A DNA stretch of 64,000 nt from Deltaproteobacteria bacterium (lineage in GTDB: Bacteria > Desulfobacterota > Syntrophia > Syntrophales > UBA8958): the NCBI GenBank assembly GCA_026388335.1, contig JAPLJZ010000236.1:9295-73294 (forward strand), in the 5' to 3' direction. A program made the translations under genes and the position numbers. Positions within the stretch are counted from its first letter, which is position 1. Each line of letters starts with the position of its first letter. The notes beneath the pieces are model-generated. The model was not told where the DNA came from and did not search any database. It saw nothing but the letters and a program-made list of their open reading frames with translations. Positions 2,430 to 41,171 of the stretch are shown piece after piece.

Positions 2430-4004
2430 TCAAGAATTGGGATTAATCAGATATGTTTCCATATCGTCCAAAAACTGTTTCATATAAACGCCAGACTGTT
2501 TTATGTCTACAGTATCTTCATTCATCGTTATCTCGACAAAGTATTGTTTGATATGACCGCGTTTCAATTTTTCCCCTGCCTCGTATATCTTTTTCTCTAT
2601 CCCATCGGGTATTACTTTTCCCCCAACATAAAATCCGTGATAAACCAGAATTGTCTCCTGCCCCATTTTCCCCATAAGTCCCGCCAGCCTGATTTTCCCC
2701 GAGGAACTTTTGAGTGGGGGAATCTCCGTCAACTCCCGACCTGATCCCTGATAGCACAGAGCCGGGGGATGATAATTTGATATACGGCTATAGAGGGCGA
2801 GAAAATTCAGGCTTGGGCCATTCTTCTGCCGATATTGCCGCAAAATAAAATCATCGGGGCCAACCTCCCATGGCATCACAGCAGAAAATGTACTCCCCTG
2901 CCATCCTGATGCTACCATCGGCAAACTGAGCGGCAGGCTTGCCGTCTGAGCGCCTTCGCCCCGGTTCTGCAAATAGGCGCTGAGCAAACCACTCATGAGC
3001 AGCAAGACGAAGACCAGAAATAGCTTTCCCTTATTAACCCCCATGCCCGGCGCAGCCACAACGAAGCATGAAAATTCCCCCTTACCCCCCCTTGACAAAG
3101 GGGGGATGGAGGGATTTTCATGTAAATCATGAGATATCCGGCTTTCCATGACCATAAAGAACTTGGTGATCGCCATGAGCCCCAAAACGGCAACGACAAA
3201 AACAGCAATGCCCCATAACGAGTGCAACTTCCCTTCCGCCATCTCCGGACCCCATTTTACAGCCACCACGGCGGTTGTTGTGACCCGGATAATATTCACC
3301 ATAATGATCAAGGGCAACATAGATATCACTATTGCCAGGCGAAATTTCCACCTGCGAATGACCAGGTAACTGTAAAATATGGACAGGGTTAAAATAGCCA
3401 TCAGGGAATTCAGGCCGGAACAGGCATCTGCGACGCCCAGAAACAGGGATGAGATTTCAATAATGTTCCCATAAATTTTGACTTGGTAGCCCATGAGCGT
3501 CAGAAGCGCTGCTGCCGCCTTCGTTACGAGCAGCTTGAGGGGGAAGACAACGTCCATGTATATTTTGCCGGGGATAGGAAAAGCCAGCCCCAAAAGAGCA
3601 AGAGGAAAGACAAATTGTCGGGCAAAAGAGACCCCCTTTAGATAGCAGGCCAGGCCATATAGAGTGAGGGGTATGGAAAGCTGGGCCAAGAAATAGACCC
3701 CCGATGCCTGCCCCAGGAGATTAAGAGACAGACCAACCAGGAAAAATACCGGGCTTCCCGCATCAGGACAGGGGCTCTTTAATAGCTCCCAGAGAATTTT
3801 CCGTTTCTGGTAGACAAGAAACCCGGACAGGGCAAAGACCAAGGGGGCATGGCGAGCCAGTTCATTGCCGATGACACTGTCTCTCAGATCATAGATAATG
3901 GGATAGTAGGCGAAAAAGAGGAACAAAAACAGGAAACCAAAGATGAACCAGGACCTGCTCACCCCCTGCTCCCCGTGGTGCTTATCACCCGGGCTTTCCC
4001 TCAT
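2430..4004 (-). CDS. Exosortase (EpsH family) fused to a C-terminal EpsI-family domain
   Basis: 524 aa. The N-terminal ~300 aa is polytopic membrane with exosortase-type motifs (ADACSGLNSL with the candidate catalytic Cys; NIIRVTT with the conserved Arg). The C-terminal ~200 aa is soluble and EpsI-like (...LYSRISNYHPPALCYQGSG...). A 4-nt overlap with the upstream TPR gene suggests translational coupling. Confidence 0.85.
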   Translation of the reverse strand: MRESPGDKHHGEQGVSRSWFIFGFLFLFLFFAYYPIIYDLRDSVIGNELARHAPLVFALSGFLVYQKRKILWELLKSPCPDAGSPVFFLVGLSLNLLGQASGVYFLAQLSIPLTLYGLACYLKGVSFARQFVFPLALLGLAFPIPGKIYMDVVFPLKLLVTKAAAALLTLMGYQVKIYGNIIEISSLFLGVADACSGLNSLMAILTLSIFYSYLVIRRWKFRLAIVISMLPLIIMVNIIRVTTTAVVAVKWGPEMAEGKLHSLWGIAVFVVAVLGLMAITKFFMVMESRISHDLHENPSIPPLSRGGKGEFSCFVVAAPGMGVNKGKLFLVFVLLLMSGLLSAYLQNRGEGAQTASLPLSLPMVASGWQGSTFSAVMPWEVGPDDFILRQYRQKNGPSLNFLALYSRISNYHPPALCYQGSGRELTEIPPLKSSSGKIRLAGLMGKMGQETILVYHGFYVGGKVIPDGIEKKIYEAGEKLKRGHIKQYFVEITMNEDTVDIKQSGVYMKQFLDDMETYLINPNS

Positions 4005-5684: not shown

Positions 5685-6350
5685 ATGAAGCTTACAGATG
5701 ATCTTTATGCCTATGAGTGGACAGATTATTTCGAGAACAATTGCAATAGCTTTTATATCGGCGGCAATATCGGGGCCCTTGTCGATCCCGGCCTGACAAA
5801 ATATGTTCCCGATCTCCTGGAAAAAATGGCGCAGGATGGCATTGAAACCAAGGGCATCCGCTACATCATCAATACCCACTCCCATCCCGATCATTTTGAA
5901 GGATCTGAATATTTCTACGACCAGGACATTCAAATAGCATTGAATAAGGAAGAACTGGATTTTCTCCAGGGACCGGGCGGGGAGCTCTATGGCCTATTCG
6001 GGCTTGCGACACCCCAAGCCAAAATCGATCTTTTTTTAGCGGAAGGACTTTTGACACTGGGTGATGAGGAGTTTCAGGTGCTGCATGTCTCCGGTCATTC
6101 GCCTGGTTCCATCGCCCTTTATTGGCCGCGGCGGAAGACCCTTTTCCCGGGGGATGTCATTTTCAATCAAAATGTAGGGAGAACGGATTTCCCGGGCGGT
6201 AACGGGTCGCTGCTTAAAAAGAGCATCTCCAAACTGAGCGCCTTGGATGTGGAATGGCTTCTGCCGGGGCATATGGAGATCATTAAAGGGGCTAATAATG
6301 TGAAAAACAATTTTAAAACAGTCGTGGATCACATCTTTCCTTACATCTAA
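5685..6350 (+). CDS. MBL-fold metallo-hydrolase
   Basis: 221 aa with the canonical HxHxDH motif (NTHSHPDHFEGS), downstream His/Asp ligands (VSGHSPGS, LLPGH), and GGGAGG shortly before the ATG. Confidence 0.85.
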   Translation: MKLTDDLYAYEWTDYFENNCNSFYIGGNIGALVDPGLTKYVPDLLEKMAQDGIETKGIRYIINTHSHPDHFEGSEYFYDQDIQIALNKEELDFLQGPGGELYGLFGLATPQAKIDLFLAEGLLTLGDEEFQVLHVSGHSPGSIALYWPRRKTLFPGDVIFNQNVGRTDFPGGNGSLLKKSISKLSALDVEWLLPGHMEIIKGANNVKNNFKTVVDHIFPYI

Positions 6351-6364
6351 AAAGATCACAATTT

Positions 6365-7198
6365 ATGCTCACAGCCAGAAGGACAGTTTTTTTCATATCT
6401 GACGGCACGGCCATAACGGCGGAAACGTTGGGGCAGAGTCTCCTGACCCAGTTCAACCATATCCTTTTCGATCAGGTCACCCTCCCCTTTATTGATACTG
6501 CCGCCAAAGCAGAGCGGGCGGTGAACCAGATCAATCTGGAGGCAAGCCAGACGGGACTCCCCCCCCTCATCTTCAGCACCCTCATTAATGCCGATATTCG
6601 CAATATCATTATGAATAGTCAGAGTAAATTTTTTGACCTCTTTGAAGTCTTCATCGGTCGTCTGGAAAAAGAACTCAACGTAGAATCCTCCCATACCATC
6701 GGGCGCTACCACAGCTTTGTCAGCAACGGCAGCTATGATGTCCGCATTGACGCCGTGAATTATGCCCTCGGAAATGACGACGGGATTTCCACGAAGAATT
6801 ACGACAAGGCCGATATCATCGTCGTGGGCGTTTCACGCACCGGTAAGACGCCGACATGTCTTTATCTTGGTATGCAATTCGGTATCTATGCGGCCAATTA
6901 TCCCCTGACCGAGGAAGATCTTTTTGGACGCTACGACGAACTTCCCAATGTCCTGGTCCCCTTCCGGAGGAAATTGTACGGCCTCACCATCAATCCCGAA
7001 CGCTTGCACAGGATCCGGTCCGAAAGGCGACCCCAGAGCCGTTATTCCTCTCTTCATCAATGCCAGGTGGAAATCGCCGCCGCTGAATCGCTTTTTCTTT
7101 CTGAACACATACCATATATTAATATTACTACCGTATCTGTGGAAGAAATCGCCGCCACTGTGCTCCATGCATGCGGTTTGCAGAGGCGAGTTCTTTGA
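6365..7198 (+). CDS. ppsR: Pyruvate, water dikinase (PEP synthase) regulatory protein, DUF299 kinase/pyrophosphorylase
   Basis: 277 aa. N-terminus RTVFFISDGTAITAETLGQSLLTQF, P-loop VVGVSRTGKTPTCLYL and C-terminal IDITTxSVEE-type ending (INITTVSVEEIA), all typical of PpsR. Confidence 0.85.
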   Translation: MLTARRTVFFISDGTAITAETLGQSLLTQFNHILFDQVTLPFIDTAAKAERAVNQINLEASQTGLPPLIFSTLINADIRNIIMNSQSKFFDLFEVFIGRLEKELNVESSHTIGRYHSFVSNGSYDVRIDAVNYALGNDDGISTKNYDKADIIVVGVSRTGKTPTCLYLGMQFGIYAANYPLTEEDLFGRYDELPNVLVPFRRKLYGLTINPERLHRIRSERRPQSRYSSLHQCQVEIAAAESLFLSEHIPYINITTVSVEEIAATVLHACGLQRRVL

Positions 7199-7397: not shown

Positions 7398-9251
7398 ATG
7401 AGTCTATCAAGTATGACCCTGCGGAAAAAGATATTTCTCATCGTTGCCTTGACTTTTTTTGGTCTAACGATTGTATCCCTAATTACCTCTTACCGTATTC
7501 TCCTGGGGGGAATCCAGGAAATCGAAATACGAGAAAGCCGGCAGGACCTGGATCGCGCCATCGCCCTGCTTGACAATGAACTCAGCTCCATTGGCACGAT
7601 GGCACGTGAGTATGCTACATGGAACGACATGTGCACCTTCATGACCTCCCGAACCCCGGCTTTCATTACCTCTAATTTTACCGATTCAACCTTTATCAAT
7701 CTGAAGATCAATTTTATTATCATTACCGATCGCTCCGGTAATATTGTCTATGCATCTGGTTTTGATCTGAAAAAACAAAAGAAAATGCCGATATTCAATG
7801 GTTTCCCCGAACAACGCAAAATAATTCATGATTACATCTTCTCCTCGCCTACATCCAAATCATCATCAGGCATTGAATTCTTACAGGAAGGCCTGACCAT
7901 GCTTGCTGTCCGGCCCATCATGACCAGCGATGGCAAGGGAAATCCACGCGGCCTTTTTATCATCGGCCGCTTCCTCGACACGGGAGAAATTGCTCATCTT
8001 GGCGAGATGCTAAAGCTTAAATTATCACTTTTCCACAAAAACGAAAAGAATCTTCCTCCAGATGTCAGCAACGCATGGACCGCTCTGACCCCAGATCAGA
8101 CCATGTTCATTCAACCCATTAGCGGTCATACCATTGCCGGATATGCTTTGATGAAAGATCTCTTTGGAAAATCATCCCTGGTACTCAGAACGATGGACGA
8201 CAGATCCATTTTCAAGCATGGCAAGGCTATCGCCGTCTATGTGCTTATCTTTGTGCTATTTGCGGCCCTTGTCTTCACGGTGGTCTCGGTCTTGCTGCTG
8301 GAAAAGTTAGTTCTCCGCAGGCTTTTGAAGATCAGCCATGATGTCAGATCCATCGAATCCGACGGAAATCTAACAAAAAGAATCCAACTGGATGGTCGAG
8401 ACGAGCTGGCAAACCTTACCCATGACATCAATAACATGCTTGAAAAACTCGAGCATTCGGAAATTAACATTCGCAATGAAGCGGAAAAATACCGCGCTGT
8501 TATTGAAGATCAAACGGAATTCATCTGTCGTTTTGACCAAGACGGCGCCTTGACCTTTATCAACGATGCTTATTATCGCTTTTTCCATCATAAACGCCGG
8601 GAATTGATTGGCAGACATTTTCTTTCTTTTGTCCCTGACAATGACCGCGGCCATATCGACGAACTTCTCAGTAGTGTAAAGACGGAAAACCCCGTGATAT
8701 CTTATGAAAACCGCGTGATATTGCCCGAAGGCGAGGAATTATGGCAGCATTGGACCTGCCGGGCGATCTATGATGAGCATGGGGAATTCATGGAATATCA
8801 GGCTGTCGGACGGGATATTTCTGATCGCAAACAAGCGGAAAATGAGCTCCTGACCCTCAACAGCAAGCTCGAAGAGGCCAATATCCAATTAGGCGCTGCC
8901 TATACGAACATGAAAAACAACCTTGATAAGCTGAGAAAACATCTTTTCAAGGAAGAATTTGCTTTTCTCGTGGACCGGAAAGGACAGATTTGCGGCATCA
9001 CCGAACGGGTGCTTGAATATATGAAACTCTCCCGCAGTGAGATGATCGGCGCCAACATGAGCGATTATCTGCCGGACAAGGAACGCGAGACCTTCATCGG
9101 GGAGCTTCACGAGGCCTGGATTGGCATTACCAAGCAATCCTATGTTCAGCTCCTGCGGCCAAAAGAGGAATCGGAATCGCAATTCTTCGAAATGAAACTG
9201 GCCAGGCTGACCCTGGAAGGGAAACGGATGCTTCTGGTTACCCTCAGATAA
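7398..9251 (+). CDS. Membrane sensor protein: CHASE4-like periplasmic domain, HAMP, two PAS-like domains, no recognisable output domain
   Basis: 617 aa. TM1 (IFLIVALTFFGLTIVSLI); a ~250-aa periplasmic region beginning ...DLDRAIALLDNELSSIGTMAREYATWNDMCTFM (CHASE4-like); TM2 (VYVLIFVLFAALVFTVVSVLLL); HAMP (RDELANLTHDINNMLEKLE); PAS (YRAVIEDQTEFICRFDQDGALTFINDAY...); a coiled coil; and a second PAS-like segment. No HisKA/HATPase, GGDEF, EAL or MCP signature seen. Confidence 0.7.
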   Translation: MSLSSMTLRKKIFLIVALTFFGLTIVSLITSYRILLGGIQEIEIRESRQDLDRAIALLDNELSSIGTMAREYATWNDMCTFMTSRTPAFITSNFTDSTFINLKINFIIITDRSGNIVYASGFDLKKQKKMPIFNGFPEQRKIIHDYIFSSPTSKSSSGIEFLQEGLTMLAVRPIMTSDGKGNPRGLFIIGRFLDTGEIAHLGEMLKLKLSLFHKNEKNLPPDVSNAWTALTPDQTMFIQPISGHTIAGYALMKDLFGKSSLVLRTMDDRSIFKHGKAIAVYVLIFVLFAALVFTVVSVLLLEKLVLRRLLKISHDVRSIESDGNLTKRIQLDGRDELANLTHDINNMLEKLEHSEINIRNEAEKYRAVIEDQTEFICRFDQDGALTFINDAYYRFFHHKRRELIGRHFLSFVPDNDRGHIDELLSSVKTENPVISYENRVILPEGEELWQHWTCRAIYDEHGEFMEYQAVGRDISDRKQAENELLTLNSKLEEANIQLGAAYTNMKNNLDKLRKHLFKEEFAFLVDRKGQICGITERVLEYMKLSRSEMIGANMSDYLPDKERETFIGELHEAWIGITKQSYVQLLRPKEESESQFFEMKLARLTLEGKRMLLVTLR

Positions 9252-9332: not shown

Positions 9333-9785
9333 ATGACTGTCTTATTTCTCTGCACCGCCAATATCGTCAGGAGTTTCATGGCAGAGAGGATATTGAAGGG
9401 AAGATTGGCAAAGATCAAGAGAAGCGATGTGGCCGTTTGTTCCGCCGGAATGATCGACATGCAGGGCGCTGACGGCGATCCGGCAGCGATAAAAATGCTG
9501 GCGGAACACGGATATGATAGTCTTTCCCATGTTTCCAGATTAATCTCGGAAGGGATGCTGGGGGAAGCAGACTGGATTGTGGTGATGGAAAGCGCTCATC
9601 GTCAACAGCTTATCGGCGACTATCCTCAATATGAGGGAAAGATTCGCCTCCTGAAATCCTTTGCCAGAGATTACGATGGCGTCAACCAGGACATACGTGA
9701 CCCGTACCGGCAGTCGGTTTATAATTATCGACTCTGTTTTTCAGAAATTTACATGGCCATTGACGGAATGATGAAATGTATTTAG
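9333..9785 (+). CDS. Low-molecular-weight protein-tyrosine phosphatase
   Basis: 150 aa. N-terminal CX5R(S) P-loop (LFLCTANIVRSFMAE) and a C-terminal DP motif (DIRDPY). This is the expected partner of the Wzc-type tyrosine kinase at 19266. Confidence 0.8.
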   Translation: MTVLFLCTANIVRSFMAERILKGRLAKIKRSDVAVCSAGMIDMQGADGDPAAIKMLAEHGYDSLSHVSRLISEGMLGEADWIVVMESAHRQQLIGDYPQYEGKIRLLKSFARDYDGVNQDIRDPYRQSVYNYRLCFSEIYMAIDGMMKCI

Positions 9786-10570
9786 ATTATTGGAAAATCA
9801 ACAAGTATCCCTTTGAGAACGTCCCCGATCCGGACTTCATGTACTATTCTCCGGAACACGAAGAAGCCCTTGTCCGCCTGCTGTATGCCGTCAAAAGGAT
9901 GAAGGGCGCCGCGCTCCTGACCGGTGAAATCGGCAGCGGGAAAACAACCTTAAGCAGGGTCTTCATTCAACAGCTTCCCGAGAAGGAATTTGACATCGGT
10001 CTCATCACGAATCCCTCCCTGAACGCCCTGGATTTCATCAAAGAGGTTCATTACCAATTGGGGCTCGATTCCGATTCCAATTCCAAAACCGATCTGCTCG
10101 TTATTCTCAATAACCACTTGCTGGACAACATGAACAATGGAAGGAGCACCCTGTTGATTATTGACGAGGCCCAGCTCATTTTCGGTGAGACGTTTGAGGA
10201 GATCCGTCTCTTGTTGAACTTCCAGATGAACGACCGGTTCCTGATGACTTTCCTCCTCATTGGCCAGCCGGAATTGCGAGATATGATTCGCGAATATAAA
10301 CAGCTTGATCAACGCATCGCCATCAGGTATCACCTCAATCCGCTGACGAAGTCAGAAACGGCCAATTACATCCGTTTCCGCCTGAGCAAGACAGGTTGTG
10401 AGCGTGAGCTATTTACGGAAAAGGCTTATGATGCCATTTATCAATATTCCGGGGGTATACCACGGAAGATAAACAATGTTTGTGACTTATCGCTGTTGAT
10501 CGGCTTCAGCCTGAAATTCCAGGAAATTGATGAGCCACTGATTTTAAAGGTTGTCAGAGATTCCCTATAG
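9776..10570 (+). CDS. ExeA-like AAA ATPase (PEP-CTERM/exosortase-locus secretion ATPase type)
   Basis: 264 aa. N-terminus MYLDYWKINKYPFENVPDPDFMYYSPEHEEAL, Walker A GEIGSGKTT, Walker B LLIIDEAQ. Overlaps the phosphatase gene by 10 nt. Confidence 0.8.
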   Translation: MYLDYWKINKYPFENVPDPDFMYYSPEHEEALVRLLYAVKRMKGAALLTGEIGSGKTTLSRVFIQQLPEKEFDIGLITNPSLNALDFIKEVHYQLGLDSDSNSKTDLLVILNNHLLDNMNNGRSTLLIIDEAQLIFGETFEEIRLLLNFQMNDRFLMTFLLIGQPELRDMIREYKQLDQRIAIRYHLNPLTKSETANYIRFRLSKTGCERELFTEKAYDAIYQYSGGIPRKINNVCDLSLLIGFSLKFQEIDEPLILKVVRDSL

Positions 10571-10616
10571 TCTTTTCAGATTGACAGTCTCTCCCCCGCA
10601 ATCTATAATCCCCAAC

Positions 10617-10904
10617 ATGAACGAACATAATAAAAAGGGCGTGATTGCCAATCCCATGGTAATACTTCGGGAAGAATTCGACGACCGGGCAATCCTGTTC
10701 GATCCGGAAACGGGAAATACTTTCGGCGTCAACCCGATCGGCGTCCTCGTCTGGAAACACCTCGACGGTCGTCATTCCATTGATGATATTGCCGTAATTG
10801 TCTTCGAAAAGGCCGATGCGGTTCCTTCCGATGTGACCACTCACATCGAGAATTTTCTACAGGTCGCAGTCGATCTCGGGCTGGCCGGCTACGGGGTTAA
10901 ATAA
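10617..10904 (+). CDS. PqqD-family protein (RiPP recognition element-like), copy 1
   Basis: The likely start is ATG 10617 (MNEHNKKG...); the ORF is open from 10551. PqqD-type core: ILFDPETGNTFGVNPIGVLVWKHLDGRHSIDDIAVIV. Ends 8 nt before the radical SAM gene. Confidence 0.75.
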   Translation: MNEHNKKGVIANPMVILREEFDDRAILFDPETGNTFGVNPIGVLVWKHLDGRHSIDDIAVIVFEKADAVPSDVTTHIENFLQVAVDLGLAGYGVK

Positions 10905-10911
10905 GGATCTT

Positions 10912-12018
10912 ATGACTACGTCAGTGATGAAAACACCCCGCAATGTTGATATCGAGATTACAAGTTTTTGTAATCTCCGCTGTGCCTACTGCAGTCATTT
11001 TTCCGGCCCGGGAGATGTAAAAGAGGACCTCCCGCTGGAATCCTGGCTTCAGTTTTTCGCCGAATTGGGTCGCTGCAACACTATGAAAATAACCCTTTCC
11101 GGAGGGGAACCCTTCAGCCGCCCGGACCTCCGGGCCATTATTCAGGCTATCGTGGCCAATCGCATGCGTTTCACCATTCTCAGCAACGGCACCCTCATCG
11201 ATAATGAAATGGCCGCTTTCCTGTCCGCAACCGGTCGCTGCGATCTCGTGCAGGTCTCCATCGACGGGGCCATTGATACTACCCACGACGCCTTTCGGGG
11301 GGAAGGTAACTTTATGAAGGCAATTCATGGTATCCATGCCCTGCAGGCCAACCATTTGCCCGTATCGGTCCGCGTTACCATCCACCGGAAAAATGTTCGC
11401 GAACTTGACGCCATTGCCGGATTTCTCCTGGAGGACCTTGGCCTGCCGTCTTTTTCTACCAATTCGGCCTCTCACATGGGATTATGCCGGAAAAACGCCG
11501 CCCAAACGCAACTTACCGTTGACGAGCACTCACTGGCCATGGAAACCCTGCTTGCCCTTACGGCCAGGTATAAAGGACGGATTAATGCATCGGCCGGCCC
11601 ACTGGCGGATGCGCAGTTCTGGCTGGAGATGGAAAATTCCCGGCGGGAAAACCGGGAACGACCAGCGGGTCGCGGATTTCTTACGGGATGCAGCGGTCCC
11701 ATGCAGACCATTGCTGTCCGCGCTGACGGCGTCATTGTCCCCTGCTCACAGTTGTGCCATCTGAGCCTGGGCCGGATCAACCAGGATGATCTTGGCGAGA
11801 TCTGGCGGCACCATCCGGAGCTGCAAAGCCTGAGGAAGCGCTCCCGGTTATCACTTGAGGATTTTCCCTTTTGCCGGGATTGCCCCTATACCTCCTATTG
11901 TACCGGTAACTGTCCGGCAATTGCCTATAGCCTCACCGGCGAAATTGATCATCCCTCTCCCGATGCCTGTCTCCGGCAATTCTTAACACAGGGCGGCCGA
12001 CTTCCGGAGGTAGCGTAA
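10912..12018 (+). CDS. Radical SAM/SPASM-domain peptide-maturase-like enzyme, copy 1
   Basis: 368 aa. CX3CX2C cluster (FCNLRCAYCSH), SAM-binding GGEP (LSGGEPF), and a C-terminal Cys-rich SPASM region (GCSGPMQTIAVRADGVIVPC ... FCRDCPYTSYCTGNCPA). Confidence 0.9.
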   Translation: MTTSVMKTPRNVDIEITSFCNLRCAYCSHFSGPGDVKEDLPLESWLQFFAELGRCNTMKITLSGGEPFSRPDLRAIIQAIVANRMRFTILSNGTLIDNEMAAFLSATGRCDLVQVSIDGAIDTTHDAFRGEGNFMKAIHGIHALQANHLPVSVRVTIHRKNVRELDAIAGFLLEDLGLPSFSTNSASHMGLCRKNAAQTQLTVDEHSLAMETLLALTARYKGRINASAGPLADAQFWLEMENSRRENRERPAGRGFLTGCSGPMQTIAVRADGVIVPCSQLCHLSLGRINQDDLGEIWRHHPELQSLRKRSRLSLEDFPFCRDCPYTSYCTGNCPAIAYSLTGEIDHPSPDACLRQFLTQGGRLPEVA

Positions 12019-12119
12019 ATTTTAGGTTAGGGGTTATAAACATCTTGACCTGCAAATCGCCATAAGGTATCGTTTCAATGTATAGATGTCATGGATTCGT
12101 TATGAAAGGAGGGGCAACT

Positions 12120-12518
12120 ATGGACATCCAGAGAAGGTCTCTTTTCAAGATTGCGGCGGGAGGGGCGCTGCTCGTCACGGGCGGTTCTTTCTTAGCGAAG
12201 GAAAACAGTTTTATGTGGAACCTGTGGCATCAGCTTCGTTATCGCGTCACGATTAATGCGGCGCCGGCGAGAAATCCAGACATTATATCTAAAAGACAAG
12301 GTCAGGAAACGGTTCTTTATTCCCAGTCACAGCAGACGGATCTCCTTAAGCTCAATCCCATGGCCGGGCGCATCTGGGAGATGTGTGACGGCTCACACCG
12401 GGTGGGTGATATGATTCGCAGCATCGGCAATCGTTTTGATGTCGTGACCTCCGAATGCACCCGGGATGTCCTGTTCACCGTTGCAAACCTCCAGCAGCGA
12501 GGATTGCTCCGCATCTAA
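12120..12518 (+). CDS. PqqD-family protein with N-terminal twin-arginine (Tat)-type signal, copy 2
   Basis: ATG 12120 lies 5-6 nt after AAAGGAGGGG (12105-12114). N-terminus MDIQRRSLFKIAAGGALLVTGGSFLAKE (RR-x-L-F-K plus a hydrophobic region). The C-terminal half is PqqD-like: LLKLNPMAGRIWEMCDGSHRVGDMIRSIGNRF. Confidence 0.7.
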   Translation: MDIQRRSLFKIAAGGALLVTGGSFLAKENSFMWNLWHQLRYRVTINAAPARNPDIISKRQGQETVLYSQSQQTDLLKLNPMAGRIWEMCDGSHRVGDMIRSIGNRFDVVTSECTRDVLFTVANLQQRGLLRI

Positions 12519-12529
12519 AGGGAGGATAT

Positions 12530-12913
12530 ATGGAAGGGGACTTTAAATCGAGATTCAAACTTCCCTATGAGCCGCCGCAGATCTTTGACCTCTGGACCTC
12601 AACGGCCCATGCCCAGGATGCGGCGGCCAAGCAGTGTAAAACCGGCTCCTCGGTAAGTAAGCAATGCATGACCGGTGGTTCCCCGGGGCAACAGTGCATG
12701 TCCGGAGGGACGGCATACGGCGGTAAATGCCAAAGCGGCAGCGTAGCTACGGGAGAATGCGACCACGGGAGTTCAGCCCAATCGGGAAAATGCCAGTCAG
12801 GAAGCGTCCCTACGGGACAATGCAGGTCAGGAAGCGCCGCAGCAGGCGGGAAGTGTGACTCAGGCAGCGCCGCTGGAGGTGGTTGCACGTCAGGCAGTGC
12901 AGGGAAAAACTAA
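12530..12913 (+). CDS. Candidate RiPP precursor: 127-aa peptide with 33-aa leader and nine Cys-x-[ST]-G-[SG] repeats
   Basis: ATG 12530 lies 4 nt after GGAGG (12521-12525) and 11 nt after the upstream stop. Cys residues sit at positions 36, 46, 56, 67, 77, 88, 98, 109 and 119. The core is Gly/Ser/Ala-rich with no signal peptide. It is the last gene of the PqqD/rSAM operon. The longer ORF start at 12455 overlaps the upstream gene and lacks an RBS. Confidence 0.65.
   Translation: MEGDFKSRFKLPYEPPQIFDLWTSTAHAQDAAAKQCKTGSSVSKQCMTGGSPGQQCMSGGTAYGGKCQSGSVATGECDHGSSAQSGKCQSGSVPTGQCRSGSAAAGGKCDSGSAAGGGCTSGSAGKN
12629..12910 (+). repeat. In-frame tandem coding repeats (nine 30-33-nt Cys-centred units; last 189 nt = three 63-nt super-repeats)
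   Basis: The periodicity is visible in both the DNA and the protein. For example, aaatgccaaagcggcagcgtagctacggga (12725-) compares with aaatgccagtcaggaagcgtccctacggga (12788-). The 21-aa units are GKCQSGSVATGECDHGSSAQS / GKCQSGSVPTGQCRSGSAAAG / GKCDSGSAAGGGCTSGSAGKN. Confidence 0.8.
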
Positions 12914-12916
12914 TTA

Positions 12917-12940
12917 GTGGGGCATAACCCCGTTTTATTT
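12917..12940 (+). terminator. Weak hairpin + T-rich tract after the precursor gene
   Basis: GGGG(12919-12922)-CATAA-CCCC(12928-12931) is followed by GTTTTATTT. The stem is only 4 GC pairs (6 with wobbles). The T-tract overlaps the stop of the convergent gene at 12935. Confidence 0.3.
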
Positions 12941-13855
12941 CGCCACGACAAGCTCCCAGAAACCGGGATCCTTCCGGAAAAACAGATCATAGGCCGCAGT
13001 CATTTCACAAACGTCACGGCAAAGATAAAAGGCCTGCCTCTTCAAGGGTTCCCCCATCACCTCAAAACAATGAAGGTGCTCCTTTAATAATTCCGTGAAG
13101 GCGTTTCGCTGCTCCCGAGACTGAATGGAGGTCATTGCCGACTGATGGAGAAAGAGCAATTTGTCCAGTTTTTCCTGCTGCAGGTACAACCGTTTGGGGG
13201 ACGGTTGGTCGCCCCCCACCTGCCTGAACGGGGTGGCATGGATATGACAGGCATCTCCGGCGTCTTCGATTACTGTTGCATCATCGGATAAGACAATATC
13301 GCCGGAAGACAAGGCGGCGACAGTTGATTTACCTGTCCCCGAGGTTCCAAGAAACAGGTATCCTCCCCTTCCCTTTCTCTTTTTGATGCCTGCGCCATGA
13401 ACCATGAGCCTGCCTCTGTTTACCATCACCAGGCAGGTAAAGACAAAAAGCAGCTTCAGCAGGGTCCCCACGAAATGGTTCGCCTCATCTGAGCAGAAAA
13501 TGTAGATCAATCCCCGGTTGGTACGATCATCAAAGATTAGGCAACCGTTCAAAAATCCAATGGCTTCAGAATAATTCTTCAGGGAAGAAAAGGTGATTTT
13601 GTCAATCCGGGCAAAGATCGCTTCGTTTATATTGGAATCTTCGCGGCGGATGAGATGGGGTTCACTGTCAAAGCGTTGCAGGTAAGTTAGTTCATGATCG
13701 AAATGGACAAGACAGACGGCGTCAGGGGTTTTTTTTTTGCTGATCAGAAAACCCGACAACAGGCCCGGTAGTTCGTCGAAGAGATATTCCGCCGCCGCTC
13801 CGTGGGAAATAAAGTCAAAGTTGACCCCGGCAATCGAAAACCACGCTTCCTTCAT
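12935..13855 (-). CDS. HPr-kinase-like P-loop protein (putative peptide Ser kinase)
   Basis: 306 aa. ...LMVHGAGIKKRKGRGGYLFLGTSGTGKSTVAAL...IVLSDDATVI matches the HPr kinase/phosphorylase C-terminal catalytic core (H-x-x-x-V, GxSGxGKS, LxxDD). The start overlaps the HD-GYP stop (ATGA). Confidence 0.65.
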   Translation of the reverse strand: MKEAWFSIAGVNFDFISHGAAAEYLFDELPGLLSGFLISKKKTPDAVCLVHFDHELTYLQRFDSEPHLIRREDSNINEAIFARIDKITFSSLKNYSEAIGFLNGCLIFDDRTNRGLIYIFCSDEANHFVGTLLKLLFVFTCLVMVNRGRLMVHGAGIKKRKGRGGYLFLGTSGTGKSTVAALSSGDIVLSDDATVIEDAGDACHIHATPFRQVGGDQPSPKRLYLQQEKLDKLLFLHQSAMTSIQSREQRNAFTELLKEHLHCFEVMGEPLKRQAFYLCRDVCEMTAAYDLFFRKDPGFWELVVAK

Positions 13856-15093
13856 GAAGCGGGCAGGTCCTCGACGGAGACACTGTCTTCAATATTCAAC
13901 ACCGGATGACTCCGCAGGTCGACCATTCGGGGCGGATCCAATTTTATCCCCTTTTCGTCAAAGATCAGATTGACCACCGGCTTCATCGGATTAGTCTTGT
14001 TCGTCGCGACAACCCGGCCGATATTACGGTTATTCAGCCGGACATAACTGCCGATAGGATACATGGAGATCTCATCTAAAAACATCTTGGTGATCCGGGG
14101 TTCAAATAGATTTGCCCTGGAACCAATCAGTTCCTTGATCGAGTCGGACTGCAATAGGGGCTTCTTATGGGGGCGGTGATGGGTCATGGCCTCATAGGAA
14201 TCACAAATGCCGATAATCTGGGCATAGTCGCATATTTCGTCTCCCTTCAGCCCCCGGGGATAGCCCTGCCCATTTGCCCGCTCCTGGTGTTCATAGACGG
14301 CCCTGATCATCTTCGGGTATCTCGCCGCAAAAGGCGCCATTATCTCAACCGCGAATTCCGGATGACTCTTGATAAGATCCATTTCACTATCTGACGGTCT
14401 CCCCGCCTTGTTCAAGATATTATCCGGGATCCTGAACATTCCGATATCATGAAGCAGGGCCGCCAGTCCGAATTCGATGAGTTTCGATTCTGAGTATCCC
14501 ATCCGTTGGGCAACCTTCAATCCATAAACCAGGGTATTGATAGGAGAAGAAAGATAATAATCGTCTTCCTGTTCATAATCCACGGTCAACTGGTAGATTT
14601 GCGATGTCATATCGTGGGAGGAATGGAGGACATTATTTATATAGATCAGCGCCGGTTCAAGCTGAAAGGACTCCCCTTTTCTGACCTGGTTACGGACGTG
14701 ACCCATATATTGTTTCGCCGCCACATAAATCATTCTTATTCTGTCATCTTCACCCGGCTCTTCCGTAGCTTCCGCAATTGGTTGATCATCCTGCCTCTCT
14801 GAAGGCGTTTGCGTCGCTGTCGCCATTGGCAATTCAGGGGCGGCCGTCTCTATCGCCAGCGATGCTTGCGTGGTTTCGATAACATTCGTCTCCTCGATCT
14901 CGATATCAATGGGGATCTCTTGCTGATTTCCAGATTTCAGTTTAAGAATGTCAATTTCACTCAACCGTAAAGACAGGCGTGCTTCTGCCAGAGCTGCCTC
15001 GTCAGTCTCCGTCTGTTCTGCCGATTCGTCCTGCGGTTCAACATTCGTGAGACTCTTTTTTTTACCCATAACAAGATCGTAAGCACGTGCCAT
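13852..15093 (-). CDS. HD-GYP domain protein (c-di-GMP phosphodiesterase type) with acidic low-complexity N-terminus
   Basis: 413 aa. LLHDIGMF (HD) and EHQERANGQGYPRGL (HD-GYP signature). The N-terminal ~130 aa is rich in E/T/A/D. Confidence 0.85.
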   Translation of the reverse strand: MARAYDLVMGKKKSLTNVEPQDESAEQTETDEAALAEARLSLRLSEIDILKLKSGNQQEIPIDIEIEETNVIETTQASLAIETAAPELPMATATQTPSERQDDQPIAEATEEPGEDDRIRMIYVAAKQYMGHVRNQVRKGESFQLEPALIYINNVLHSSHDMTSQIYQLTVDYEQEDDYYLSSPINTLVYGLKVAQRMGYSESKLIEFGLAALLHDIGMFRIPDNILNKAGRPSDSEMDLIKSHPEFAVEIMAPFAARYPKMIRAVYEHQERANGQGYPRGLKGDEICDYAQIIGICDSYEAMTHHRPHKKPLLQSDSIKELIGSRANLFEPRITKMFLDEISMYPIGSYVRLNNRNIGRVVATNKTNPMKPVVNLIFDEKGIKLDPPRMVDLRSHPVLNIEDSVSVEDLPAS

Positions 15094-15113: not shown

Positions 15114-16193
15114 TTAATTATAGATGCGCGAGGCTGGAAACAGGTTTTTCTCGTAAGCCTCGTCACACATAAAAAAAGAGCTTCTCAGATCACCGGAAGC
15201 GGCATAGGCACAGGCCCGGCAGGAACCGAGGCAACGAAATTTAAATATGCACCGTCCGCAGATCCCGCTGAGTTGCGAAGGCGTTTCTTTTCTTAGCTTT
15301 TGCAGCAGCGGATGATGACGCCAGATTTCCGTTAGATCATCCTTCGCGATGTTTCCCATATTAAGGTCCGTTTCCGTCTGCCCGATCCCGCATAAAGATA
15401 CCGTACCATCGGCAAGAATTCCTAAAATATTGAGGATATGGCATTCGTACAGAGGATTGCCGGTGACGGCATGCAGGGATTTCAACCCGATGGGCATACA
15501 GAAGTAAATCTCCGTTTTATATTTACTGCCGAGTTCCGCTTCGATCCAGCGATCAATTCTGATCAGTTCTTCAATATCCACGTTTTCCCGGCGCTGAAAG
15601 ACCTTTTCCCCACGGCCCGTGGGCATGACGGGATTGATCTTGAAGGAGGGAACCTCAAGATCGTCGCAGAGGGCCGCCAGAGCTTCAATCTCCGGAATGT
15701 TTTCCTCATAGAGGCTCATAATGACCTGGGTGTTTATCTTCTCAGCCCGCAGGTAATGCAGGGCGGCAACGGATTTCTCATGACAACCCTTTATTCCCCG
15801 GAGCTTGTCATGCTGCGCCGCCTGCGCACCGTCCAGACTGACAGATACCTGGCGGACCTCACATTCTTTGATGACCCTTGCCATATCATTGTCAATCATG
15901 GTCCCATTCGATTCGATATCGATGCAGAGACCTTCTCCGTGGAGATATCTCATCAGTTCGACAATATCCTTGCGGAGAAACGGTTCACCTCCGGTAAGTT
16001 TGACTGTCCCCAAGCCCAACTCTTTCGCCGCAGCAATGGTTCTCGTAAGGACGGACAGTTCCATCACCTGCTCATCTCCATCCTCCGGAGCAGGGGGGGA
16101 CACCCAGCAGTGCCTGCACCTGAGATTGCAACGCTCGGAAAGGTACAAATACAGGCTCGTCAGGGGAAATTCATCAGGAACCATGGCTCTCAC
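15114..16193 (-). CDS. Radical SAM/SPASM-domain peptide-maturase-like enzyme, copy 2
   Basis: 359 aa from GTG 16193 (alternative ATG 16184). CX3CX2C (RCNLRCRHC), LTGGEPF, and SPASM Cys clusters (ECHILNILGILADGTVSLC ... ICGRCIFKFRCLGSCRACA). Shares strings with copy 1 (EIWRHHPLLQKLRK versus EIWRHHPELQSLRK). Confidence 0.9.
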   Translation of the reverse strand: MRAMVPDEFPLTSLYLYLSERCNLRCRHCWVSPPAPEDGDEQVMELSVLTRTIAAAKELGLGTVKLTGGEPFLRKDIVELMRYLHGEGLCIDIESNGTMIDNDMARVIKECEVRQVSVSLDGAQAAQHDKLRGIKGCHEKSVAALHYLRAEKINTQVIMSLYEENIPEIEALAALCDDLEVPSFKINPVMPTGRGEKVFQRRENVDIEELIRIDRWIEAELGSKYKTEIYFCMPIGLKSLHAVTGNPLYECHILNILGILADGTVSLCGIGQTETDLNMGNIAKDDLTEIWRHHPLLQKLRKETPSQLSGICGRCIFKFRCLGSCRACAYAASGDLRSSFFMCDEAYEKNLFPASRIYN

Positions 16194-16485
16194 ATTTTGT
16201 CAAAAACTGCATTGCCGCCAGGTTTTCAAAAAAAAGTTTCGTATCTGCTGCTATTTTCTCAACGGCCATTTCGGGATAGAATTCCATCAAAAGAGTGATG
16301 ATATCGCCCACTGTTTTCCGGCCGTCGCACAGTTCATAGATATTGACGCCGTTGGCATTCAGGTACTTCAGATTGCCGGTATGGGGGTCAAAAAGGAAGG
16401 CCCCCTCTTCCTCTTTTCTGAAGACCATCTCCTGATTCGGTTTCAGGCAATCTTCCCTGGTGACAATTTTCGTACCATCAGGCAT
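16174..16485 (-). CDS. PqqD-family protein, copy 3
   Basis: The preferred start is ATG 16485 (MPDGTKIV...), preceded by GAGAGGTG; the ORF is open to 16524/16527. Core: FLFDPHTGNLKYLNANGVNIYELCDGRKTVGDIITLL. The 3' end overlaps the downstream rSAM start. Confidence 0.75.
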   Translation of the reverse strand: MPDGTKIVTREDCLKPNQEMVFRKEEEGAFLFDPHTGNLKYLNANGVNIYELCDGRKTVGDIITLLMEFYPEMAVEKIAADTKLFFENLAAMQFLTKCESHGS

Positions 16486-16596
16486 AATACTACACCTCTC
16501 AGCTCTAACTACTTCTTTTTTCATCAAGAATCAATAATGAATTTTAAAATATTTAGTTCCTTTTTTTCCCCGCCCCTGTTATCGTATCCTTCAATG
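16486..16596. promoter_or_regulatory. AT-rich probable divergent promoter region
   Basis: This region is visibly AT-rich (tcaagaatcaataatgaattttaaaatatttagttcctttttttcc). It lies between the best-supported start of the minus-strand PqqD gene and the second candidate start of the plus-strand nucleotidyltransferase-like gene. No specific boxes assigned. Confidence 0.3.
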
Positions 16597-17775
16597 CATG
16601 CAACCATCGATCATGCCCTCTTTTCGCTGATCAACCATCAGCCGACGCCATGTCTCCCGGAAGTTCTGGCTTCCCCGGAATTATTTCCCTACCTTGAGAT
16701 GAACGGCGTCGCCGGAGTGCTGTTTTACCACCTCCAAAGAGCGGGTCTCCAACAGCTCGCCCCTCCGGACTGTTATGAAGCCCTTCATGACCGTTTCCAT
16801 TTCCAGATCAGAAGAAATATGGCGTGTGCGGCCGCGGCAAAGATAGTTTTTCGCCTGTTGCACACGGCAGGCATCCCTTTCCTGGTCTTGAAGGGCATCG
16901 CCCTTGCCGAACATGTTTATCCCCACTTTGCCATGCGCACCACCTCGGACCTGGATATTCTGATCCGCAAAGACGACCTGTTGCGCGCCGATCTGGCCCT
17001 GACGCAAGCCGGTTATCAATCCTGGGACAGCACCCCCCAACAGGCGCTGCTCAATCCCCCGGGTTATCTTGCCAGCCTCGAATACCACAAACCGGGGATA
17101 GCCTTCGCCTACATCCATCTCCACTGGCATCTTGTCAATACCTCAACCCCCGCCACTGCCTTCATTAATCAAGTGGATATGGAGCGAATATGGGAGAAAT
17201 CCGTCGTTGCGAAAGTGGCTGCTACGGAAGTCCGTCTCCTCTGTCCGGAGCATCTCATCATCTATCTTTGTGAGCATGCCTTGCGGGTCGGCCATTCCTT
17301 TGACCGCCTCATCCTCGTCTGCGATATTCTCTATGCCGTCAAAACTTATAAGGCCCACCTTGACTGGAATAACGTGGCCACGGAGGCGAAAGCCTTGGGC
17401 CTGCTGAATTTTGCCTATCTTGGTCTGAAGATTGTTCAGTTCTATGGGGGGCAGGAATTCTTGATTAATGACGTATTAAAGAAACTTGCCCCCCCTTCCC
17501 TCTCCCGGACGGAGCGTCTCTTTCTTTCCCTTCAGGAAAACCATTACCGTATGCGCGGGAGCAGCTATCTCGTCTATCTGGCCCTGAGCAAGGGGCCAGT
17601 AAATAAGATGAGCCTGATCCTGCGCACCATTTTTCCACCCCGCCCCATTCTCGCCCAGCGGGGGCGATGTAAATTGCATACACAGACAAATACTTTGTAT
17701 TTTCATAGAATTCGTGAAATAACGTCCCATCTTTACAAAATGTTGAAGCTTTGTTATCGGACAATTTATCCATAG
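16537..17775 (+). CDS. NTP_transf_5-like (uncharacterised nucleotidyltransferase family) protein
   Basis: Start at ATG 16537 or 16597. The 656-aa ORF from 15805 is antisense to two good genes upstream of this point. Family recognised from ...NGVAGVLFYHLQRAGL...IPFLVLKGIALAEHVYPHFAMRTTSDLDILIRKDDLLRADLALTQAGYQ (from memory; needs an HMM check). Confidence 0.6.
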   Translation: MNFKIFSSFFSPPLLSYPSMHATIDHALFSLINHQPTPCLPEVLASPELFPYLEMNGVAGVLFYHLQRAGLQQLAPPDCYEALHDRFHFQIRRNMACAAAAKIVFRLLHTAGIPFLVLKGIALAEHVYPHFAMRTTSDLDILIRKDDLLRADLALTQAGYQSWDSTPQQALLNPPGYLASLEYHKPGIAFAYIHLHWHLVNTSTPATAFINQVDMERIWEKSVVAKVAATEVRLLCPEHLIIYLCEHALRVGHSFDRLILVCDILYAVKTYKAHLDWNNVATEAKALGLLNFAYLGLKIVQFYGGQEFLINDVLKKLAPPSLSRTERLFLSLQENHYRMRGSSYLVYLALSKGPVNKMSLILRTIFPPRPILAQRGRCKLHTQTNTLYFHRIREITSHLYKMLKLCYRTIYP

Positions 17776-40172: not shown

Positions 40173-41171
40173 GTGGCTTTTTTGCTCGACAATCTAAAAC
40201 AAATGTATCGATTAGTCCGCTTTCGAAGACTCATGAATAGAGATCTGCCTTCAGCTATAGGCTTTGAAATGACGACAAGATGTAATGCATTTTGTCCAAT
40301 GTGTGTGCGACGGGATTATCAAATTGTGAATGAAGACATGGATTTTTTCCTTTTGGAAAAAACAGTTGATGAGGTAAAAAAATGGCTTCATAAAAAAATC
40401 CTCTTCAATCTGACGGGACTTTCAGAACCCACCTTATATCCAAGACTTATAGAAGCCGTGGCATACGTTAAACGCTACATTCCCGAAAGTAACGTAAGAA
40501 TTATTACCAATGGCATCGTCTTGACCTCTGATTTATCAAAAGATCTTATTCAAGCAGGATTAGACGAGTGCATGATAAGTTTTAATGGGGTGAACAGAGA
40601 GGATTATTTGGCAATCTGCGGGATTGATGCCTATGAAAAAGTGACTGAAAATATTAAAGCGCTTATAGAAAACAGGCGCTCTCTGAAATCAACCACTTTA
40701 CGCATTAACTTGAATCTTAAAAAACATGAAGGAAATAAATCATATATCCCAAACGCTGTTTCTTATTGGAACCCGCTTTTAGGCGCTGAAGATGTCGTCA
40801 GTATATCGAACATTCTTCCACTTCGGGGGGATCAACCCATCAGTTCGTGTAGCAACAGTTCCGCACGTTATCCATGCGCCCATCTCTGGGGTGAAATAAA
40901 ATTGGATATCCACGGAAATATTTATCCCTGTGATGGAAAGGTGATGGATTACCATTACCGAGAAAAAAGTGAATTACTTTTAGGGAATGTTCGGGATACG
41001 TCAATTAAAGAAGCTTATGTGTCAGACCGTGTTCGCCATTTCCGGAAGACGCATCTCAGGGGCGCATTTGATTCACTTCCCACCTGTTTATCGTGTCCGA
41101 GTTGGTCGAGATTCCCCAATTATTGGATATATAATAATTCCTTTCCTTTTTTGCGGAGAATGTGGTTGTAA
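40173..41171 (+). CDS. Radical SAM enzyme with C-terminal auxiliary Cys motifs (SPASM/twitch-like)
   Basis: GTG 40173 lies 6 nt after AGGAGG. CX3CX2C (TTRCNAFCPMC) and C-terminal Cys groups (YPCAHLWGEIKLDIHGNIYPCDG; LPTCLSCPSW). Confidence 0.8.
   Translation: MAFLLDNLKQMYRLVRFRRLMNRDLPSAIGFEMTTRCNAFCPMCVRRDYQIVNEDMDFFLLEKTVDEVKKWLHKKILFNLTGLSEPTLYPRLIEAVAYVKRYIPESNVRIITNGIVLTSDLSKDLIQAGLDECMISFNGVNREDYLAICGIDAYEKVTENIKALIENRRSLKSTTLRINLNLKKHEGNKSYIPNAVSYWNPLLGAEDVVSISNILPLRGDQPISSCSNSSARYPCAHLWGEIKLDIHGNIYPCDGKVMDYHYREKSELLLGNVRDTSIKEAYVSDRVRHFRKTHLRGAFDSLPTCLSCPSWSRFPNYWIYNNSFPFLRRMWL

Follow-up and report, generated by a model that had tools for sequence, protein, structure and literature searches.

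A conserved PqqD-type peptide-binding protein with a putative twin-arginine signal beside a Cys-rich precursor in an exosortase locus

To our knowledge, the recognition elements (RREs) described so far in the pathways for peptides made on ribosomes and modified post-translationally (RiPPs) act in the cytoplasm, and the export of RiPPs is as a rule attributed to ABC, PCAT or MFS transporters. The twin-arginine translocation (Tat) pathway moves folded proteins, and some of its substrates take a partner along: the E. coli hydrogenase-2 large subunit hitchhikes with the Tat-signal small subunit HybO, and DmsB with DmsA. Here we analyze a 64-kb stretch of DNA from a Deltaproteobacteria bacterium of the Syntrophales (contig JAPLJZ010000236.1; the whole stretch is called the window below), in which a gene at 12120-12518 encodes a PqqD/RRE protein that begins with a twin-arginine-type signal. 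We refer to this protein as the Tat-type PqqD. Our preferred reading, to which we give a probability of roughly 0.4, is that its RRE binds the leader of the adjoining precursor peptide in the cytoplasm and that the folded RRE-peptide complex leaves through Tat. The gene, its parts and the precursor are as follows.

12120..12518, plus strand: Tat-type PqqD gene (open reading frame [ORF] and translation), a 132-aa PqqD/RRE protein with an N-terminal twin-arginine-type signal
12106..12114, plus strand: ribosome-binding site AAGGAGGGG, 5 nt before the ATG
12120..12197, plus strand: signal region, residues 1-26, made up of the n-region MDIQ-RR-SLFK (R5-R6 at 12132-12137) and the Gly-rich h-region IAAGGALLVTGGSFLA
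12201..12257, plus strand: Trp-rich linker helix ENSFMWNLWHQLRYRVTIN, residues 28-46, between signal and RRE (AlphaFold2)
12258..12515, plus strand: PqqD/RRE peptide-binding domain, residues 47-132, three strands then three helices (PF05402, AlphaFold2, Foldseek)
12530..12913, plus strand: precursor peptide, 127 aa (translation; weak ScmA match, E 4.7e-4, below cutoff)

Three described kinds of RRE come closest to the Tat-type PqqD. ScmD (TIGR04248) has the same PqqD fold and belongs to the same kind of cassette, but the Tat-type PqqD scores only 35.8 bits against the TIGR04248 cutoff of 100; the true ScmD is the neighbor at 10551-10904, and ScmD lacks the 46-residue N-terminal signal and linker. 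The lasso peptide B1 proteins TbiB1 and TfuB1 are the best matches both in structure and among Protein Data Bank (PDB) sequences. Lasso leaders carry a YxxPxL motif, and the precursor leader in the window has a YxxPx[IL]-like element, the Y-E-P-P-Q-I within LPYEPPQIFDL, which we take to resemble it. However, the Tat-type PqqD reaches 31.1 bits against a cutoff of 80 for the lasso B1 models (NF033536 / NF033530), domain searches of the window revealed neither a B2 protease nor a C cyclase gene, its partners here are radical SAM/SPASM enzymes, and lasso B1 proteins themselves have no export signal. PqqD of PQQ biosynthesis (TIGR03859; structures 3g2b and 5sxy) shares PF05402, and we count as a further likeness that it is a free-standing chaperone presenting a peptide to a radical SAM/SPASM enzyme; the score of the Tat-type PqqD is nevertheless 29.2 bits against a cutoff of 46, no pqq genes accompany it, and PqqD is cytoplasmic. 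A full-text search of the literature returned no paper on a PqqD/RRE protein with a twin-arginine signal and none on the SynChlorMet cassette, and in that literature the statement of the first-pass annotation that it knew of no described Tat-targeted RRE stands.

The N-terminus of the Tat-type PqqD had been proposed to fit the Tat consensus, S/T-R-R-x-F-L-K, and it does so through the motif Q4-R5-R6-S-L-F-K10 and a weakly hydrophobic, uncharged h-region. The motif is followed by the uncharged residues I11-A26 (16 residues, 4 of them Gly) and then by K27-E28, with the basic K27 lying in the c-region, after the h-region. The maximum 15-residue Kyte-Doolittle mean of the h-region is 1.68 (family mean 1.79), compared with 2.1-3.1 for the small set of transmembrane or Sec-type N-termini encoded in the same window. 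Relatives begin with SRRxF[LMI] or SKRxFLK and continue with an uncharged stretch. In 21 relatives (46-88% identity) M1, R5, R6, L8, and K10 are invariant, while a broader 25-sequence alignment (25-78% identity) has only seven invariant columns, R6 among them, and of the 24 relatives aligned with the Tat-type PqqD 16 have R and 8 have K at position 5. The pairing of a fixed R6 with R or K at position 5 matches natural Tat exceptions, in which K is tolerated at the first position and the second Arg is fixed. Conservation of the twin arginines, put forward earlier as a check, hence holds for R6 down to 25% identity, and the N-terminal extension itself is kept in both alignments.

A loose test for an RR pair followed by an uncharged run was passed by 2 of 56 window genes, the other one encoding a Wzc transmembrane helix with a hydropathy of 2.85, and by 0.9% of shuffles of residues 2-35 of the Tat-type PqqD. 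Of the 183 proteins collected by then, 55 passed the corresponding test with RR or KR. The twin-arginine-type signal is beyond chance occurrence, and its features indicate that the protein is probably exported in a Tat-dependent manner. G21 is at least 90% conserved, and G21-x-[SA]23 is a candidate signal peptidase I site (two family members, P0035 and P0036, have A-T-A and A-T-L); cleavage at G21-x-S23 is possible. Rieske iron-sulfur proteins, in which the uncleaved Tat signal serves as the N-terminal membrane anchor, illustrate another possible fate of the signal. They share the absence of a conserved AxA site, although their passenger domain is unrelated, and family member P0043 weakly matches the PetC anchor model (E 0.021, far below cutoff). 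A lipoprotein was also considered and dropped, there being no Cys in the signal.

The ORF extends from the ATG at 12120 to the TAA at 12516-12518, and a GGAGG-type site like that of the window also precedes the homologs in the related loci L014, L009, L001, and L004. An alternative in-frame ATG at 12102, used in some database entries, reads the ribosome-binding site as MKGGAT and would still place RR inside the first 12 residues. In L004 an in-frame TGA lies two codons 5' of the equivalent Met. Over codons 1-10, synonymous and nonsynonymous changes number 2/0 against L004, 3/0 against L016, and 4/1 against L001; because these changes are mainly synonymous, the N-terminus must be translated and constrained at the protein level. 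The next Met in frame, M32, lacks conservation. In view of the synonymous changes and the L004 stop just upstream we dropped the reading of a wrong start codon and place the twin-arginine motif 3' of the start.

That the C-terminal part has a PqqD-type fold, as first read from the sequence, is upheld by profile and structure searches. Pfam PF05402 matches residues 65-130 (E 7.4e-13, 49.1 bits, gathering cutoff 23.4). We built an AlphaFold2 model on the 25-sequence alignment; the fold is thus a predicted one, with a mean predicted local distance difference test (pLDDT) score of 86 and values of 95-98 over residues 41-132. By ten-residue block, pLDDT rises from 50, 54, and 62 (residues 1-30) to 84 (31-40) and 95 (41-50). 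The model places a single helix over residues 8-45, strands at 55-60, 63-68, and 73-78, and helices at 80-88, 95-106, and 110-126. All close relatives and many distant ones keep W36 of the linker. Foldseek comparison with the PDB returned lasso B1 proteins in complex with their leaders, TbiB1 (5v1u/5v1v) and TfuB1 (6jx3), at the top (TM score 0.80-0.83, root-mean-square deviation ~2 A) and then PqqD, and a profile search of PDB sequences gave TfuB1 as the best match (E 6e-8). Together, the profile match, the predicted fold, and the N-terminal features identify the protein as a signal-like segment, a Trp-rich linker helix, and a complete RRE. Profile, predicted fold, and gene context (ScmE upstream, precursor downstream) agree that it is a member of the PqqD/RRE superfamily, and we infer that it would bind the precursor leader.

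A pair of cysteines, C89 and C113 (12384-12386 and 12456-12458), occurs in 25 of 31 signal-bearing members and in 3 of 120 signal-less PqqD representatives (Fisher 9e-20, uncorrected for shared ancestry); the signal-less proteins mostly have A, V, L or I at position 113. The pair could form a disulfide suited to an extracytoplasmic protein or could simply mark the clade. We dropped the putative disulfide as evidence on location, the enrichment being uncorrected for shared ancestry.

The gene was described from the outset as immediately upstream of the precursor ORF, and the gap is 11 nt: the precursor ORF starts 11 nt after the stop of the Tat-type PqqD, with its own GGGAGGA. The leader comprises residues 1-28 (KSRFKLPYEPPQIFDL...AHA; leader sequence KSRFKLPYEPPQIFDLWTSTAHA), and the core, from Q29 on, contains 9 Cys in C-x-[ST]-G-[SG]-type repeats. 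An export signal is absent from the precursor (N-terminal hydropathy 0.10). Its leader pattern, K-x-K-h-K-[LI]-P-Y-E-P-P-[QR]-I-x-D-L, is conserved in the window and in L014, L004, L016, L009/L022/L025, and L020/21. In the same loci and in L010 the leader-core junction reads AHA/Q, AYA/Q or AYG/Q (the slash marking the junction), the leader of the Latescibacteria precursor ending in AYG/Q. We take it as a lead only that the A-x-[AG]/Q junction agrees with the -3/-1 rule of signal peptidase I, an enzyme with its active site on the periplasmic side. Two precursor genes are hidden in public annotations. In L009 the public gene call at 9556-9996 (146 aa, no Pfam match) is in the wrong frame, and the real gene at 9525-9896 (also in L022 and L025) encodes a 123-aa Cys-rich precursor with the conserved leader. 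In the Latescibacteria loci (L010 9500-9820 and L011) an uncalled gene encodes a 106-aa precursor with P-C-R-P-type Cys/Pro repeats, in which the core differs while the gene arrangement is the same.

Judged by their sequences, the surrounding genes form a SynChlorMet-like cassette within an XrtA/PEP-CTERM exopolysaccharide (EPS) locus, as follows.

2430..4004, minus strand: exosortase (EpsH family), TIGR02602 132.5 bits, cutoff 105.55; ~8 kb upstream of the Tat-type PqqD gene
9776..10570, plus strand: XrtA/PEP-CTERM system-associated ATPase, TIGR03015 248 bits, below the cutoff of 324.5
10551..10904, plus strand: ScmD, signal-less PqqD paired with ScmE, TIGR04248 105.1 bits, cutoff 100
10912..12018, plus strand: ScmE radical SAM/SPASM protein, TIGR04250 571.8 bits, cutoff 400; Pfam Radical_SAM and SPASM
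12935..13855, minus strand: ScmC-like / HprK-related P-loop protein, weak TIGR04249 and TIGR04355; orthologs in related loci carry Pfam PF27840 ScmC
13852..15093, minus strand: HD-GYP-type (HD_5) protein, Pfam HD_5 E 8.8e-26
15114..16193, minus strand: ScmF-like radical SAM/SPASM protein, TIGR04251 333.5 bits, below the cutoff of 400; Pfam Radical_SAM and SPASM
16174..16527, minus strand: third PqqD (PqqD3), signal-less, overlapping the start of the ScmF-like gene, PF05402 E 3e-10
16537..17775, plus strand: NTP_transf_5 nucleotidyltransferase, PF14907 E 3e-46

Upstream of the cassette lie genes for the exosortase, a PrsT-like TPR protein, a PpsR-like kinase, a CHASE4-PAS sensor, a low-molecular-weight (LMW) phosphotyrosine phosphatase, and the XrtA-associated ATPase; downstream lie polysaccharide export and Wzc-like genes and then ~40 kb of sugar-modification genes. 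No ABC/PCAT exporter, leader peptidase, other export gene or tat gene turned up among the 56 larger ORFs of the window. The cassette holds three PqqD paralogs, two of them signal-less and each coupled to its own radical SAM/SPASM gene (ScmD-ScmE and PqqD3-ScmF); the signal-bearing one of the three is coupled to the precursor. The HD-GYP gene keeps its place between the ScmC-like and ScmF-like genes in those related loci whose flanks reach far enough, and orthologs of the sensor (7398-9251) in related loci carry Pfam CHASE4 and PAS. The HD-GYP protein and the upstream sensor hint at a cyclic di-GMP link between the peptide cassette and EPS production.

Other genes of the window stand further from the cassette. 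Within the EPS sugar-modification block, far from the peptide cassette, lie genes for a 332-aa radical SAM/SPASM protein (40173-41171, plus strand) and a B12-binding radical SAM protein (51463-52962, plus strand). Upstream of the sensor, at 5685-7198 on the plus strand, a metallo-beta-lactamase-fold protein and a PpsR-like kinase/phosphorylase (383 bits, above cutoff) are encoded, as they are in all Syntrophales-type loci; one would not expect to meet them in an EPS locus. The minus strand at 1576-2217 encodes a DUF2939 membrane protein.

To place the Tat-type PqqD among its relatives, we searched 1.84 billion representative sequences with HMMER and obtained 451 PqqD relatives at E<=0.001. The best 15 of these 451 are almost all either 126-142-aa proteins aligned from residue 1-5 on, and so signal-bearing, or fragments. 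Close homologs number 36. Proteins from Syntrophus sp. metagenome-assembled genomes (MAGs) match at 87%, one distant member is annotated from Candidatus Latescibacteria, and the diverse relatives of the 25-sequence alignment come from Syntrophales-type bacteria and Latescibacteria; the only NCBI label for these proteins is "PqqD family protein". Searches for related loci yielded just 4 in genome contigs (from Syntrophus sp. MAGs and a Deltaproteobacteria MAG, plus one weak match) and 4 loci of one clade in metagenome contigs, and a second profile search of the indexed database, with the 25-sequence alignment, added little. The signal-bearing RREs form a separate, unnamed clade that occurs, among the contexts examined, only in XrtA/PEP-CTERM EPS loci. 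The related loci (L numbers; P numbers denote family members) fall into the following types.

(a) Syntrophus type (window, L014, L004-6, L016): ATPase > ScmD > ScmE > Tat-type PqqD > precursor
(b) P0043 clade (L009, L022-25; 28% identity): ATPase > Tat-type PqqD > ScmE-like radical SAM > precursor < ScmC < HD-GYP < ScmF < PqqD > NTP_transf_5
(c) Latescibacteria (L010/11; 31%): NTP_transf_5 > Tat-type PqqD > Cys/Pro-rich repeat precursor > radical SAM-SPASM-PqqD fusion
(d) L012: Tat-type PqqD > PqqD > ScmF-like > ScmC-like
(e) KR clade (L007/8, L018, P0041 contig): LMW phosphotyrosine phosphatase > ATPase > KR-type PqqD
(f) L001-3: paralog directly after the ATPase gene, without a precursor alongside

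The Tat-type gene lies directly upstream of the precursor in the window, L014, L004-6, L016, L020/21, and the Latescibacteria loci L010/11, so that adjacency spans Syntrophus-type, P0028-type, and Latescibacteria loci; in L009/L022/L025 a single gene separates the two. P0043-clade loci have no separate ScmD; there the Tat-type gene overlaps the beginning of the ScmE-like radical SAM gene (ATGA) and is the sole RRE gene beside the enzyme. In L013 the overlap is the same, and the Tat-type gene is again the sole PqqD gene next to that enzyme. In most related loci (L001, L007/8, L009, L018, L019, L022-25) the Tat-type PqqD gene directly follows the ATPase gene. L001 and L002 carry the paralog at 10001-10411 and a second Tat-type copy from 13027 to the contig end, where both contigs break. 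On its own contigs (L020/21) this second copy directly precedes a precursor, and some Syntrophales MAGs carry both paralogs. We had considered the L001-type locus as proof that the family can be independent of a precursor and dropped it, since the same genome has the second copy followed by a precursor.

The KR clade contains ScmC and HD-GYP genes where the contig reaches, and L008 adds PqqD and NTP_transf_5. A scan of L001, L007, L008, and L018 for the leader motif and Cys-rich ORFs found no precursor, and the 420-bp gap after the KR-type PqqD in L018 contains only a ~50-nt direct repeat (ctgttgaaaagggcccggatgcaaggcgggca...; 1700-2000) and no precursor-like ORF. Directly downstream of the signal-bearing PqqD of this clade, on the opposite strand, is a DUF2939 gene (L007 8402-9001, L008 3046-3645, L018 2065-2667). 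KR-clade loci resemble the HPr-rel-A system, which consists of an HprK-related kinase A, a PqqD-family chaperone, and a nucleotidyltransferase, in having a ScmC/HprK-like protein, PqqD, NTP_transf_5, and no radical SAM gene in an EPS locus; however, the HPr-rel-A model TIGR04353 does not match the Tat-type PqqD, and the signal-bearing PqqD is an extra gene beside the ATPase gene.

Our proposal for these loci, which takes up the escort idea of the first-pass annotation, runs as follows. The RRE would be made in the cytoplasm and fold there, and its groove would bind the conserved leader (K-x-K-h-K-L-P-Y-E-P-P-Q-I-x-D-L) of the adjoining Cys-rich precursor. The ScmE and ScmF radical SAM-SPASM enzymes would cross-link the core, a chemistry presumed from the enzyme families, and in some lineages the ScmE-type enzyme may have the Tat-type RRE itself as its partner. 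Through its Tat signal the RRE would then carry the complex across the inner membrane with the signal-less peptide as hitchhiker; outside, the leader would be cut off at the conserved A-[HY]-[AG]/Q junction, and the RRE would either be released, possibly through the G21-x-S23 site, or stay tethered by its uncleaved signal. In the P0043 clade, the overlap with the start of a cytoplasmic radical SAM gene, where the Tat-type gene is the sole RRE gene, points to a cytoplasmic role before export, and such a role requires post-translational export of the kind that Tat offers. Tat is the one export route known to leave room for work in the cytoplasm, since folding precedes the targeting of its substrates. 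The stronger form of the proposal, in which a single RRE serves the cytoplasmic radical SAM enzymes as leader-binding adaptor and also, as a Tat-targeted carrier, takes the finished peptide out, is more doubtful, and we advance it tentatively. The proposed likeness to known Tat hitchhikers is that a signal-bearing subunit carries a tightly bound, signal-less partner as a folded complex. The known cases, in contrast, are redox enzyme subunits, whereas here an 86-residue RRE without a cofactor would be the carrier and would grip its passenger, a modified peptide, by the leader.

Several observations weigh against this proposal. The most constant neighbor of the family is the XrtA-associated ATPase gene, not the precursor; the KR clade (P0038, P0041, P0044) keeps signal and RRE with no radical SAM gene or recognizable precursor nearby; and the P0035-type paralog, placed after the ATPase gene, has no neighboring precursor. 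Because of the P0035-type paralog and the KR-clade loci, the precursor cannot be the family's only ligand. The N-terminus of the Tat-type PqqD has no classical AxA site after the h-region, and at E<=10 it is unmatched by Pfam PF10518 (TAT_signal) and NCBIfam TIGR01409, in a search in which HMMER filters drop many weak short matches. Furthermore, use of Tat alone is no proof of cargo, as a fast-folding domain could also need Tat. A rival explanation, akin to the periplasmic or membrane-anchored receptor that the first-pass annotation offered as an alternative, is an RRE that is exported through Tat without being a carrier. In the periplasm, or on the outward side of the inner membrane, it would be the receptor or adaptor of some peptide or protein segment of the XrtA/PEP-CTERM EPS machinery; in loci with radical SAM genes it could also bind peptide exported by another route. 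In its favor, the most constant partners are the LMW phosphotyrosine phosphatase and ATPase genes directly upstream, along with ScmC, HD-GYP, PqqD3, and NTP_transf_5; KR-clade loci keep the signal-bearing RRE without a radical SAM gene or precursor; and some genomes hold two paralogs, one by the ATPase gene and one by the precursor. We nevertheless regard this explanation as rather unlikely: no export signal is present on the precursor and no exporter is encoded by the larger ORFs of the window, the overlap with the radical SAM gene start in the P0043 clade points to a cytoplasmic step, and no candidate periplasmic ligand was identified.

The remaining explanations differ from the carrier proposal in how they read the N-terminus. 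If the RR pair and hydrophobic stretch only docked a cytoplasmic RRE, together with the radical SAM enzymes and peptide, at the inner membrane face near the ATPase/EPS machinery, the coupling of the gene to cytoplasmic radical SAM and ATPase genes would follow naturally, and the protein would remain where the RREs described so far are found; the charges flanking the h-region are also similar on its two sides (~+3 N-terminal to it, ~+2 C-terminal to it). This is improbable, however, as the motif S/T-R-R-x-F-L-K, whose second Arg is invariant, is that of the Tat consensus and not of a generic anchor, the hydrophobicity of the h-region is too low for stable anchoring, and the KR and P0043 clades are clearly more positive on the N-terminal flank, which predicts an N-in, C-out orientation. 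Marginally less probable again is an ordinary Sec or signal recognition particle (SRP) signal peptide or anchor with an incidental RR, by which the RRE would be exported unfolded and without cargo. The missing AxA site and the silence of the curated Tat models for this protein would agree with such a signal, as would its length of ~23-26 residues, short for Tat. Yet the whole S-[RK]-R-x-F-[LIM]-[KS] motif, and not just positive charge, is conserved at 25-78% identity, the h-region is Gly-rich and low in hydropathy, the c-region contains the basic K27, and one family member, P0056, falls just below the cutoffs of both Tat models (PF10518, 21.6 against 22.7 bits; TIGR01409, 14.9 against 16.7 bits). 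An artefact, with the true start downstream of RR or a motif arisen by chance, can be given hardly any weight in view of the strong ribosome-binding site, the synonymous changes in codons 1-10, the L004 stop, the unconserved M32, and the low pass rates of shuffles (0.9%) and window genes (2/56).

A conserved RRE clade with a twin-arginine signal would give the RRE domain a new location, and its architecture, although unexpected for RiPP specialists, is clearly conserved. It suggests that the product of SynChlorMet/HPr-rel-type cassettes acts outside the cytoplasm and offers a testable handle on these cassettes in the XrtA/PEP-CTERM loci of syntrophic anaerobes and Latescibacteria. As a Tat hitchhiker system, it would be very small and free of any cofactor. 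If the RRE does escort the peptide, the two proteins would amount to a split signal peptide, in which the RRE gives twin-arginine targeting in trans and the leader gives the handle for the RRE and the externally cut A-x-[AG]/Q junction. This would be a new, transporter-free export mechanism that changes how transporter-less clusters are read in genome mining, and it would allow exosortase-bearing anaerobes to place a cross-linked Cys-rich RiPP in their envelope or exopolysaccharide matrix without a dedicated transporter.

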